64,000 nucleotides of DNA from Escherichia phage BP32: the sequence record OR906198.1; one strand, 5' to 3'. The position numbers and the translations under genes were made by a program. Under the pieces are notes generated by a model. It was not told where the DNA came from. It ran no database searches and saw nothing but the letters and a program-made list of their open reading frames with translations. Numbering within the stretch: position 1 is the first letter of the stretch; every line of letters begins with the position of its first letter. Positions 42,032-44,701 of this stretch are shown piece after piece.

Positions 42032-43060
42032 ATGTCATCAATACCTTGGATTGATAATGAGTTTGCATATCGTGCATTAGCTCATTTACCTAAATTCACA
42101 CAAGTAAATAATAGTTCAACTTTTAAATTACGGTTTAGATGCCCTGTTTGTGGAGATTCAAAAACCGACCAAAATAAAGCCCGTGGATGGTATTACGGTG
42201 ATAATAATGAAGGAAATATTCATTGTTATAACTGCAACTATCATGCACCAATCGGAATATATTTAAAGGAGTTTGAACCCGATTTATATCGTGAGTATAT
42301 CTTTGAAATAAGAAAAGAAAAAGGTAAAAGTCGTCCAGTAGAAAAACCTAAAGAACTTCCTAAACAACCTGAGAAGAAAATAATTAAATCTCTTCCGTCA
42401 TGCATTAGATTAGATAAACTGGCGGAAGACCATCCAATTATAAAATACGTAAAAGCTCGCTGTATTCCAAAGGATAAATGGAAATATCTTTGGTTTACAA
42501 CCGAATGGCCTAAATTAGTTAATAGCATAGCACCAGGAACATACAAAAAGGAAATACCTGAGTCTCGTCTTGTTATTCCAATTTATAATGCTAATGGAAA
42601 AGCCGAGTCTTTTCAAGGACGTGCATTAAAGAAAGATGCTCCTCAAAAATATATCACCATCAAAGCTTATCCTGAGGCAACAAAAATCTATGGAGTTGAA
42701 CGAGTTAAAGATGGTGATGTATATGTTCTAGAAGGACCTATAGATTCACTTTTTATTGAAAATGGTATAGCTATTACAGGTGGTCAATTAGACCTAGAAA
42801 TTGTTCCATTTAAAGATAGACGTGTATGGGTTTTAGATAATGAACCTCGTCACCCTGATACTATTAAACGAATGACTAAATTAGTTGATGCAGGAGAAAG
42901 GGTTATGTTTTGGGATAAATCTCCCTGGAAATCAAAAGATGTTAATGATATGATTAGAAAGGAAGGTGCAACCCCTGAACAAATTATGGAATATATGAAA
43001 AATAATATTGCCCAAGGGTTGATGGCTAAAATGCGGCTATCTAAATATGCTAAGATTTAA
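42032..43060 (+). CDS. 61: DNA primase
   Basis: 342 aa; zinc-binding motif CPVCGDSK; Toprim-like region. Confidence 0.93.
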   Translation: MSSIPWIDNEFAYRALAHLPKFTQVNNSSTFKLRFRCPVCGDSKTDQNKARGWYYGDNNEGNIHCYNCNYHAPIGIYLKEFEPDLYREYIFEIRKEKGKSRPVEKPKELPKQPEKKIIKSLPSCIRLDKLAEDHPIIKYVKARCIPKDKWKYLWFTTEWPKLVNSIAPGTYKKEIPESRLVIPIYNANGKAESFQGRALKKDAPQKYITIKAYPEATKIYGVERVKDGDVYVLEGPIDSLFIENGIAITGGQLDLEIVPFKDRRVWVLDNEPRHPDTIKRMTKLVDAGERVMFWDKSPWKSKDVNDMIRKEGATPEQIMEYMKNNIAQGLMAKMRLSKYAKI

Positions 43061-43257
43061 ATTAACCCAACTAAAGCAAATGCTAAATCTACGAATGTAT
43101 CAAGAGTAATTACTGGAATACTAACGCCATGAGCAATAGCAACTGGCGATAAAACAAAATTCCAAAGTAAAATTCCTATCATAGCAGAAATAGTAAAAGC
43201 TATACGTTTTTTATTACCTTTGATGGCATTAACAAGTGCCATTAATTTTTGTACCAT
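43057..43257 (-). CDS. small membrane protein on the opposite strand (66 aa, 2 TM)
   Basis: only minus-strand ORF lying in an intergenic gap; AAGGAGG RBS 8 nt upstream; ATAAATA late-promoter-like element upstream. Confidence 0.5.
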   Translation of the reverse strand: MVQKLMALVNAIKGNKKRIAFTISAMIGILLWNFVLSPVAIAHGVSIPVITLDTFVDLAFALVGLI

Positions 43258-43306
43258 GCGTCGTCCTCCTTTAAATTAAATATTTATCGCAAATTTTACA
43301 AAATTT

Positions 43307-43336
43307 GTTTACTTTCTCAGCTTGTTGTGGTATTAT
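43307..43336 (+). promoter_or_regulatory. T4-type early promoter
   Basis: gtttactttctcagcttgttgtggtattat. Confidence 0.65.
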
Positions 43337-43361
43337 AAAATAAACTGCTGAGGATAATATA

Positions 43362-43922
43362 ATGATTAATAAAATTGTACATGAAATGGCTTTAAACGGA
43401 GATTCATATAAAATATCTGCCGTAGTTGAGAATTTTATACTTAATAAAGTAAAAGAATATTTCACTGATTGTTCAGTTAGTTATCAAGAAAAAATGGTTT
43501 TAACCGACGATACTGAAAAATCAAATAATTTGTTTTGTTCGAATTTTACAACTAAGAAGCGTACTAGAAGATTTGATATTGTCATTTCTCGCAATGGTAA
43601 AAAGCATATAATTGAAATCAAACACCAAGTTGGTGGAGGTACAGCCATTGATTCGGTTGGAATATATCTGGAAGATAAAGATAAATTAAAAGAATACACA
43701 AAAACTGAAAATCCTGTGTCATTGATGATATTAGATTTTTTGCCATGCGGATATTATCCGCGTAATAAGTGGACAAAAAGAGAATCATTTACTGATAATC
43801 CAACCATCCAAGCAAGGTTTAATGAATATGCTAAATCACAAAACGTGTTAGTATTACTATCAAATACATATGATGAAGAATTATATAATTCGTTTTTTGC
43901 TGCAATAAATGAGAGAATATAA
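43362..43922 (+). CDS. PD-(D/E)xK-like putative nuclease, co-transcribed with dam
   Basis: [21 protein letters not shown] fits the D...(D/E)xK core; 186 aa; stop overlaps the dam ATG. Confidence 0.45.
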
Positions 43923-44701
43923 TGCTAGGAGCTATTGCGTATACAGGTAATAAACAATCATTATTACCTGAACTTAAGTCTCACTTTCCAAAATATGACA
44001 GATTCGTGGATTTATTTTGCGGAGGTTTATCAGTATCTTTGAATGTCGATGGTCCTGTATTGGCTAATGATATTCAAGAACCAATTATTGAAATGTATAA
44101 ACGTCTTATTAGCGTGTCATGGGATGACGTTTTAAAAGTAATAAAGCAATACAAATTGTCAAAAACATCAAAAGAAGAGTTTTTGAAATTACGTGAAGAT
44201 TATAATAAAACTAGAGATCCTCTTTTGCTTTATGTTCTTCATTTTCATGGGTTTAGTAATATGATTCGCATAAATGACAAAGGAAATTTTACTACTCCAT
44301 TTGGAAAAAGAACCATAAACAAAAATAGTGAAAAACGCTTTAATCACTTTAAACAAAATTGCGATAAAATAATTTTTAGCTCATTGCATTTTAAAGATGT
44401 CAAAATTCTAGATGGCGATTTTGTATATGTGGATCCTCCGTATCTTATAACAGTTGCTGATTATAATAAATTTTGGTCAGAAGACGAAGAAAAAGACCTT
44501 TTAAATCTTTTAGACTCTTTAAATGACAGAGGAATAAAATTTGGACTGTCGAATGTTTTAGAGCATCACGGAAAGGAAAACACTCTTCTTAAAGAATGGT
44601 CTAAAAAATATAATGTTAAGCATCTTAATAAAAAATACGTCTTTAATATATATCATTCCAAAGAAAAGAATGGAACTGACGAAGTATATATTTTTAATTA
44701 A
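43922..44701 (+). CDS. dam: DNA adenine methyltransferase (GATC, N6-A)
   Basis: 259 aa; DPPY catalytic motif; FxGxG SAM motif; sequence recognised. Confidence 0.95.

Follow-up and report, generated by a model that had tools for sequence, protein, structure and literature searches.

Why do T-even phages carry a GATC methylase that appears to have no partner? The Dam methyltransferase of T2 and T4 is the textbook solitary phage enzyme, and glucosylated hydroxymethylcytosine (glucosyl-hmC) already protects the DNA of these phages. We addressed this question in a stretch of 64,000 nucleotides (nt) from Escherichia phage BP32 (record OR906198.1; hereafter the window), a segment of a Tequatrovirus (T4-like) genome in which an open reading frame (ORF) of 186 amino acids (aa), here called ORF186, runs directly into dam. 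A reading of this DNA made from its letters without database searches (the sequence-only reading) had proposed that ORF186 is a PD-(D/E)xK-like protein coupled to Dam, in a restriction–modification (R-M)-like, methylation-directed or anti-defence module. Among these options the R-M-like one fits best. We favour, with moderate confidence, the reading that ORF186 is the nuclease half of a type II R-M-like cassette with the T-even Dam, probably directed at GATC, and the T-even Dam itself looks like the surviving half of such a two-gene unit. The cassette comprises the following elements.

43362–43922, plus strand: ORF186 (phrog_8706), ATG start, a 186-aa gene of predicted PD-(D/E)XK restriction-endonuclease fold, putative restriction (R) subunit
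43922–44701, plus strand: dam, GATC N6-adenine methyltransferase of 259 aa, putative modification (M) subunit
43281–44703: approximate extent of the nuclease–dam cassette (~1.42 kb), from comparison with the cassette-less phage teqdroes
43294–43843: segment of 550 base pairs (bp) absent from T4, with CAAA microhomologies at its ends
43307–43336, plus strand: T4-early-type sigma-70 promoter-like site (GTTTAC, 17-nt spacer, extended −10 TGgTATTAT; 9/12 match, with TG)

An AlphaFold2 model of ORF186, built with six homologues, was confident and single-domain (predicted local distance difference test, 80.3; predicted template-modelling score, 0.78). It contains a helix at residues 15–33, strands at 38–48, 66–77 and 80–88, helices at 94–113 and further beta-alpha units, and thus the alpha-beta-beta-beta-alpha-beta core; the topology of the model is that of PD-(D/E)XK enzymes. 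Consistently, the Foldseek matches in PDB and BFVD were PD-(D/E)XK nucleases at modest TM-scores, with MunI as the closest structural match and Hjc, Mus81 and Bax1 among the others. A sequence search of PDB with ORF186 and with the family profile returned nothing at E ≤ 10. The active-site residues map to the following codons.

43428–43430, plus strand: E23, invariant, on helix 15–33; aligns with DpnII E152
43572–43655, plus strand: catalytic core and adjacent invariant motif (D72, E85, K87, H88, Q89, G93–S98)
43575–43577, plus strand: D72
43614–43616, plus strand: E85
43620–43622, plus strand: K87

In the model, D72 lies on strand 66–77 and E85-I-K87 on strand 80–88. Across a nine-sequence alignment reaching down to 29% identity, E23, D72, E85, K87, H88, Q89 and G93-T-A-I-D-S98 are invariant, so that the homologues conserve both the strand-2 acid and the strand-3 (D/E)xK of the superfamily. 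The D...(D/E)xK motif picked out by the sequence-only reading is D72/E85/K87, and the nuclease identity it proposed is supported by the predicted fold, the Foldseek matches and the invariance of these residues and of the helix glutamate, with the Pfam matches lying below threshold. Sequence and model together firmly predict a restriction-endonuclease-fold protein with an intact active site and, by prediction, nuclease activity.

The structural matches also bring in a different function. ORF186 could be a MutH-like or repair nickase that uses Dam hemimethylation for strand discrimination or processes replication and recombination intermediates. Dam and a GATC nickase form a known pair in E. coli mismatch repair, the fold is common to Hjc, Mus81 and Bax1, and a GenBank note for phage Sf24 places its ORF186 homologue in CATH 3.40.1350.10. 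We regard this role as quite improbable beside that of a restriction nuclease.

The closest sequence family is that of DpnII and MboI. DpnII (PF04556) was the top Pfam match of ORF186 (E 0.0022; 17.8 bits, the cutoff being 23) and the commonest one in its family (4 of 9 members, best E 8.3e-5), and the PADLOC REase_II model matched ORF186 at E 4.8e-5. By Pfam criteria ORF186 is not a PF04556 member. A DpnII sequence served as bait alone; it matched PF04556 at 2.7e-100 and fetched real members, including the S. pneumoniae DpnII. When aligned by hhalign with a 15-sequence DpnII alignment, the ORF186 family matched at P 4.8e-4 with a probability of 32%, over DpnII positions 124–226 only. This alignment pairs E23, D72 and E85 with the invariant DpnII residues E152, D201 and E214, places K87 opposite N216 and sets GGGTAIDS opposite GSGSKLNE with identical spacing; in both families the motif G-[TS]-x-[IL]-[DN]-[SE] follows the ExK or ExN at the same distance. 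An AlphaFold2 model of DpnII residues 148–288 has its secondary-structure elements in the same order as the ORF186 model. Like ORF186, DpnII is partnered by a D12-class GATC methylase, of the DpnM type. The two differ in length (186 aa versus 288 aa), in the N-terminal helical domain of ~145 residues that only DpnII has, in ExK versus ExN, and in the R-before-M order and single methylase of the ORF186 cassette. ORF186 may thus be distantly related to the catalytic domain of DpnII and MboI, with a shorter N terminus.

For MunI, hhalign of the ORF186 profile places D72, E85 and K87 on D83, E98 and K100 (P 0.0026, 28 core columns only); the MunI sequence was verified against PDB 1d02, the crystal of the D83A catalytic mutant. 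No hhalign match was obtained for ORF186 with EcoRI. ORF186 differs from MunI and EcoRI in lacking their GNAxER recognition motif, having instead GTAIDS five residues after K87, nearer the catalytic strand, and in having a Dam partner that is GATC-specific rather than specific for an AATT core.

These comparisons bear on a second alternative, in which ORF186 cuts Gm6ATC in ordinary-cytosine DNA marked by the phage or host Dam, phage DNA being spared by glucosyl-hmC at GATC, and the module serves host chromosome breakdown. Dam-positive hosts would give such an enzyme abundant substrate, the strict coupling to a methylase would be explained equally well, and viral nucleases dependent on N6-methyladenine exist, HHPV4I being an example (PMC10101028). 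ORF186, however, is single-domain: it has no separate domain of the winged-helix or SRA kind for reading a methylated base, as expected of a DpnI-like enzyme, and Pfam scans at E ≤ 1 found no DpnI or winged-helix family in it. Its family-level similarities are only to methyl-sensitive enzymes (DpnII, MunI), and T4 degrades host DNA without it. We consider a methylation-dependent nuclease unlikely.

ORF186 is a real gene under strong purifying selection. By tblastn it was found in 188 phage records, in 154 of them near full length, and ~146 Tequatrovirus records carry it intact at 95–100% identity. Pairwise Nei-Gojobori comparison of seven Tequatroviruses gave ratios of non-synonymous to synonymous substitution (dN/dS) of 0.02–0.24, with dS of up to 0.22 and dN of at most 0.011. 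The family, phrog_8706, is a PHROG family without an assigned function, and in a 113-member sequence cluster every name is 'hypothetical protein' save one evidently wrong 'head outer capsid protein'. Nor is ORF186 a conserved T4 gene of known non-nuclease function, the outcome that would have spoken against the sequence-only reading, as T4 has lost it. A HMMER search of 1.84 billion cluster representatives yielded 11 ORF186 clusters at E ≤ 0.001, all of them phage-like and at least two of them spurious in appearance (one a repetitive protein of 765 aa, one matching the last ~30 positions alone); no bacterial source family was found among these representatives, and a scan of IMG/VR added only two already-known genomes. 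On these searches the family is small and phage-restricted. Literature and review look-ups turned up no description of the gene. ORF186 is a conserved gene without earlier characterisation, and its family is very small and of predicted restriction-enzyme fold.

The evidence that joins this nuclease to dam is its inheritance. The coordinates reported for ORF186 by the sequence-only reading agree with the ORF listing, and so does the overlap with dam: the junction reads ...AGAATATAATGCTAGG, in which the TAA stop and the dam ATG have one base in common (TAATG). The window Dam matches TIGR00571 at 1.2e-69 and is 98% identical to T4 Dam, which occupies the same locus between genes 61 and 56; from this identity to a characterised enzyme, its specificity is predicted to be GATC. 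Every homologue of ORF186 with readable context sits immediately upstream of a D12-class Dam methylase. The two genes are adjacent or overlapping at seven divergent loci, in two genome positions, in three T4-like genera and three metagenomic contigs.

Tequatrovirus (window, G28, T2): pair between gene 61 and gene 56
Dhakavirus MX01: 63% identity, same locus as in the window, same TAATG overlap
Jiaodavirus KPV15: 43% identity, another position (after rIIB, before topoisomerase), 7-nt overlap
Three metagenomic contigs: 57%, 35% and 37% identity, adjacent to dam or overlapping it by 20–35 nt

Nuclease and Dam identities drop in parallel along this series (63/76, 57/72, 43/63, 35/57 and 37/55%). 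A neighbour-joining tree, computed without bootstrap, groups the nuclease-linked Dams in a single clade within which the Dams of T4 and of phage KP179 are nested; the Dams of RB49-like and KP15 phages, which have no such nuclease beside them, branch outside it. The constant linkage, the co-falling identities and the Dam clade indicate that nuclease and dam have long been inherited as a unit. The locus therefore has the nuclease–methylase adjacency and joint inheritance of a type II R-M system, together with a methylase whose site is defined by identity, and the functional link to dam drawn by the sequence-only reading is strongly reinforced.

Other ORFs stand upstream of dam elsewhere. Those of RB49-like phages (143 aa) and of KP15 (81 aa) show no relationship to ORF186, and Pfam returned nothing significant for either, only two faint matches (E 0.03–0.1) for the KP15 ORF. 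At the locus where KPV15 has its nuclease–dam pair, KP179 shows another arrangement (492–2792 of the stretch examined): the genes are a 210-aa ORF, a second D12 methylase that overlaps this ORF and has an MjaIII-like annotation, and then Dam. The 210-aa ORF carries a weak Hjc or PD-(D/E)XK signature (E27...D...DVK; Pfam Hjc, E 7e-4); as its similarity to ORF186 is weak and at the level of the catalytic core only, we rejected it as a homologue. In the neighbour-joining tree, the KP179 Dam has a very short branch relative to the KPV15 Dam. The KP179 locus looks like a second, unrelated nuclease–methylase pair in a T4-like phage.

How, then, did T4 come to have dam alone? The sequence-only reading had suggested a comparison of the gap between gene 61 and the nuclease–dam operon across T-even genomes. 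The interval 43258–44760, from a 66-aa ORF next to gene 61 up to gene 56, proved to be a hypervariable hot spot, for which Tequatroviruses show four states or more.

Nuclease and dam: this window, T2 (~146 records)
Dam only: T4 and relatives
Homing endonuclease instead: fPS-90, phrog_655
Empty: teqdroes

In total, dam was present at ≥90% identity in 181 of ~507 Tequatrovirus records, and the pair is intact in ~80% of those that carry dam. Relative to the empty allele of teqdroes, the cassette is a clean ~1.42-kb block at 43281–44703: identity runs on the left up to ...CCTCCTT and resumes on the right at the gene-56 promoter and Shine-Dalgarno region. The 550-bp deletion of T4 hits the nuclease gene and not dam, taking the promoter and about codons 1–160 and leaving only the last ~25 codons upstream of the methylase. 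A potential early promoter of T4 dam, P(E)17.40, was annotated in 1984 (X01416, 613–641). The deletion junction falls between its −35, on the left, and its −10, on the right, and the promoter may be a fusion that the deletion created.

The nuclease gene has also decayed elsewhere. In all T2 records examined (gene at 2001–2546 of the T2 sequence), a 1-nt deletion near its 3′ end swaps the last seven residues (...SFLLQ) and gives a protein of 181 aa with a truncated terminal helix. The T2 gene no longer overlaps dam, from which it is separated by 13 nt, and laboratory T2 may carry a hypomorphic allele. Further decayed copies, beside dam or at the equivalent locus, are the split ORFs of phages G29 (142 aa) and vB_EcoM_G4500, the 61-aa stub of KarlGJung (Bas37) and the 183-aa copy of ES19. 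Such recurrent decay of R beside a preserved M is what one expects of R-M cassettes.

The same losses could be read as signs of a dead relic, or of a DNA-binding regulator of dam, kept because its 3′ end holds the ribosome-binding site and promoter of dam. T4 does express dam without ORF186, the T2 laboratory allele is frameshifted and several isolates have split copies. Against this, purifying selection acts along the whole length of the gene (dN/dS about 0.05), none of the four catalytic residues varies in homologues down to 29% identity, and no relic would co-diverge with dam across three genera. A relic or regulator is, in our view, very improbable.

Patchy presence between conserved genes is likewise a property of the Seg and Mob homing endonucleases, which use the same hot spot (T4 SegF, fPS-90 phrog_655). 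ORF186 might accordingly be a selfish nuclease of this type, cutting the empty or variant allele of co-infecting T-evens near the 61/56 junction or within dam and spreading with dam through recombinational repair. ORF186, however, belongs to another fold class and has no extra DNA-binding domain with which to recognize a long asymmetric site. The movable unit is the nuclease with its methylase and not the nuclease alone, as a sporadic freestanding nuclease with an empty site in relatives would be; Jiaodavirus has the same pairing at a different genome site; and its absence from T4 reflects an internal deletion that left a 3′ remnant rather than an empty site. We therefore judge homing by the nuclease itself to be rather improbable.

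We also asked whether depletion of GATC goes with the cassette. GATC is the most under-represented of the 256 tetranucleotides in the window (76 observed versus 216 expected from trinucleotides; observed/expected, 0.35), the next lowest palindrome being TCGA (0.58), and is clearly under long-term negative selection in the Tequatrovirus lineage. A depletion that tracks the cassette had to be rejected: in teqdroes (38200–88000), which has neither dam nor the nuclease, the ratio is 0.33. As the depletion is independent of the cassette, it is no evidence for the target of the nuclease.

A more radical reading would account for it. If ORF186 had co-evolved with the T-even Dam, which tolerates hmC, and cut GATC even in glucosyl-hmC DNA whenever the adenine is unmethylated, the cassette would be a phage-against-phage weapon. 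Dam-less Tequatroviruses (about two thirds of records) would then be restricted in mixed infections, and repair of the break would copy the cassette into them, which amounts to homing of an R-M unit; the T-even Dam would gain a purpose, and GATC depletion regardless of the cassette would be explained. We hold this to be an unlikely, if far-reaching, possibility.

On the favoured R-M-like reading, nuclease and dam would be transcribed early from one promoter, and the TAATG overlap would couple translation of Dam to that of the nuclease, so that the methylase is made whenever the nuclease is made. The own early promoter that the sequence-only reading gave to ORF186 stands as a consensus match at 43307–43336; a promoter scan by itself found 12 sites versus 12.6 expected from shuffles, that is, no enrichment. 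Because the scan does not rise above shuffles, the call rests on the consensus and on a hairpin just upstream, and we treat the site as a consensus-based candidate for the early promoter of the nuclease–dam operon. A Shine-Dalgarno sequence, GAGGA (43350–43354), precedes the ORF186 ATG. The nuclease would belong to the EcoRI/MunI/MboI structural class of PD-(D/E)XK enzymes, small and with a single domain, and would most likely act as a homodimer on a short palindrome when this is not methylated by Dam. Because its partner is Dam and its core resembles that of DpnII, its site would probably be GATC or contain GATC. Phage DNA would be doubly safe, through Dam methylation and through glucosyl-hmC, and the likely targets would be unmethylated cytosine DNA inside the infected cell: fast-replicating co-infecting phages, plasmids and under-methylated host DNA. 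The cassette would also be a selfish, movable two-gene unit, and selfish maintenance is one candidate role. In T4, the 550-bp deletion would have removed R and spared M, the usual route to an 'orphan' methylase.

The closest functional analogue, likened by description, is R.CviAI/M.CviAI of the chlorovirus PBCV-1, in which a lytic virus combines a GATC methylase with a PD-(D/E)XK nuclease. In the chlorovirus, the host is eukaryotic and unmethylated and the role in host-DNA degradation is clear, whereas the hosts of ORF186 phages are Dam-methylated. Orlowski and Bujnicki (PMC2441816) describe GATC recognition as having arisen several times on the PD-(D/E)XK scaffold, and HHPV4I provides a precedent for a virus-encoded nuclease used against other viruses (PMC10101028).

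Several points weigh against the assignment to a GATC-directed R-M-like cassette. The PF04556 match of ORF186 lies below the Pfam gathering threshold, the hhalign probability for DpnII is low with a match confined to the catalytic core, and ORF186 lacks the N-terminal ~145 residues of DpnII and carries a lysine in place of the DpnII asparagine. A Dam of their own is present in the hosts known for these phages (E. coli, Shigella, Salmonella, Yersinia and Klebsiella), so a methyl-sensitive GATC cutter would find little host substrate; and as glucosyl-hmC shields the phage, Dam is not obviously needed for self-protection. In the older literature T2 dam mutants are viable, which would imply either that the nuclease spares phage DNA when it is unmethylated or that T2 has a defective allele. 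Finally, a classical system runs a risk if R precedes M within a single operon.

If ORF186 is the cognate nuclease of Dam, T4 Dam would be an 'orphan' by accident, through the loss of 550 bp from the phage that laboratories use as reference. It would then follow that virulent phages with hypermodified DNA carry complete R-M cassettes, presumably against other mobile DNA in the cell, and biochemistry would gain a new, very small restriction-enzyme family, possibly with a compact GATC cutter.

The surroundings of the cassette are shared with many relatives, positions 43000–44750 of the window being 98–99% identical to LYE-01, G28 and other phages. The neighbouring features are as follows.

42032–43060: gene 61, primase, upstream of the cassette
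43057–43257, minus strand: 66-aa ORF, adjoining gene 61 and not part of the cassette
43220–43245, plus strand: terminator-like hairpin and T-run, where the transcription unit of gene 61 ends before the promoter of the cassette
Downstream of dam: gene 56, then soc

Phage fPS-90 has an annotated terminator at the place equivalent to the hairpin. The 66-aa membrane ORF was rejected as a part of the module, since it is present in all allelic states, including the cassette-less phages. It matches phrog_2024 at E 1.9e-30, has a Shine-Dalgarno sequence (AAGGAGG) and one or two hydrophobic segments, and is convergent with gene 61, whose stop it overlaps by 4 nt. It is conserved in Tequatrovirus and Dhakavirus (T4, T2, MX01, fPS-90 and teqdroes) and annotated in most relatives, and lacks annotation in the T4 reference AF158101.6. 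The sequence-only reading took it for the only credible minus-strand gene of the window, which is consistent with our scan: the only minus-strand ORFs of at least 110 aa (27582–27965, 33989–34333, 53161–53559 and 55876–56349) had no PHROG match, overlap plus-strand genes and are probably spurious. A late-promoter-like GATAAATA lies ~30 nt upstream of the 66-aa ORF.

On the other side of the cassette, a promoter-like site (44698–44725) overlaps the dam stop. The program-called ORF of gene 56 begins at a TTG (44745–45278), and the start annotated in relatives is the ATG at 44760, after AAAGGAAAAATA. T4 has SegF immediately after gene 56, at whose start oriA is annotated.

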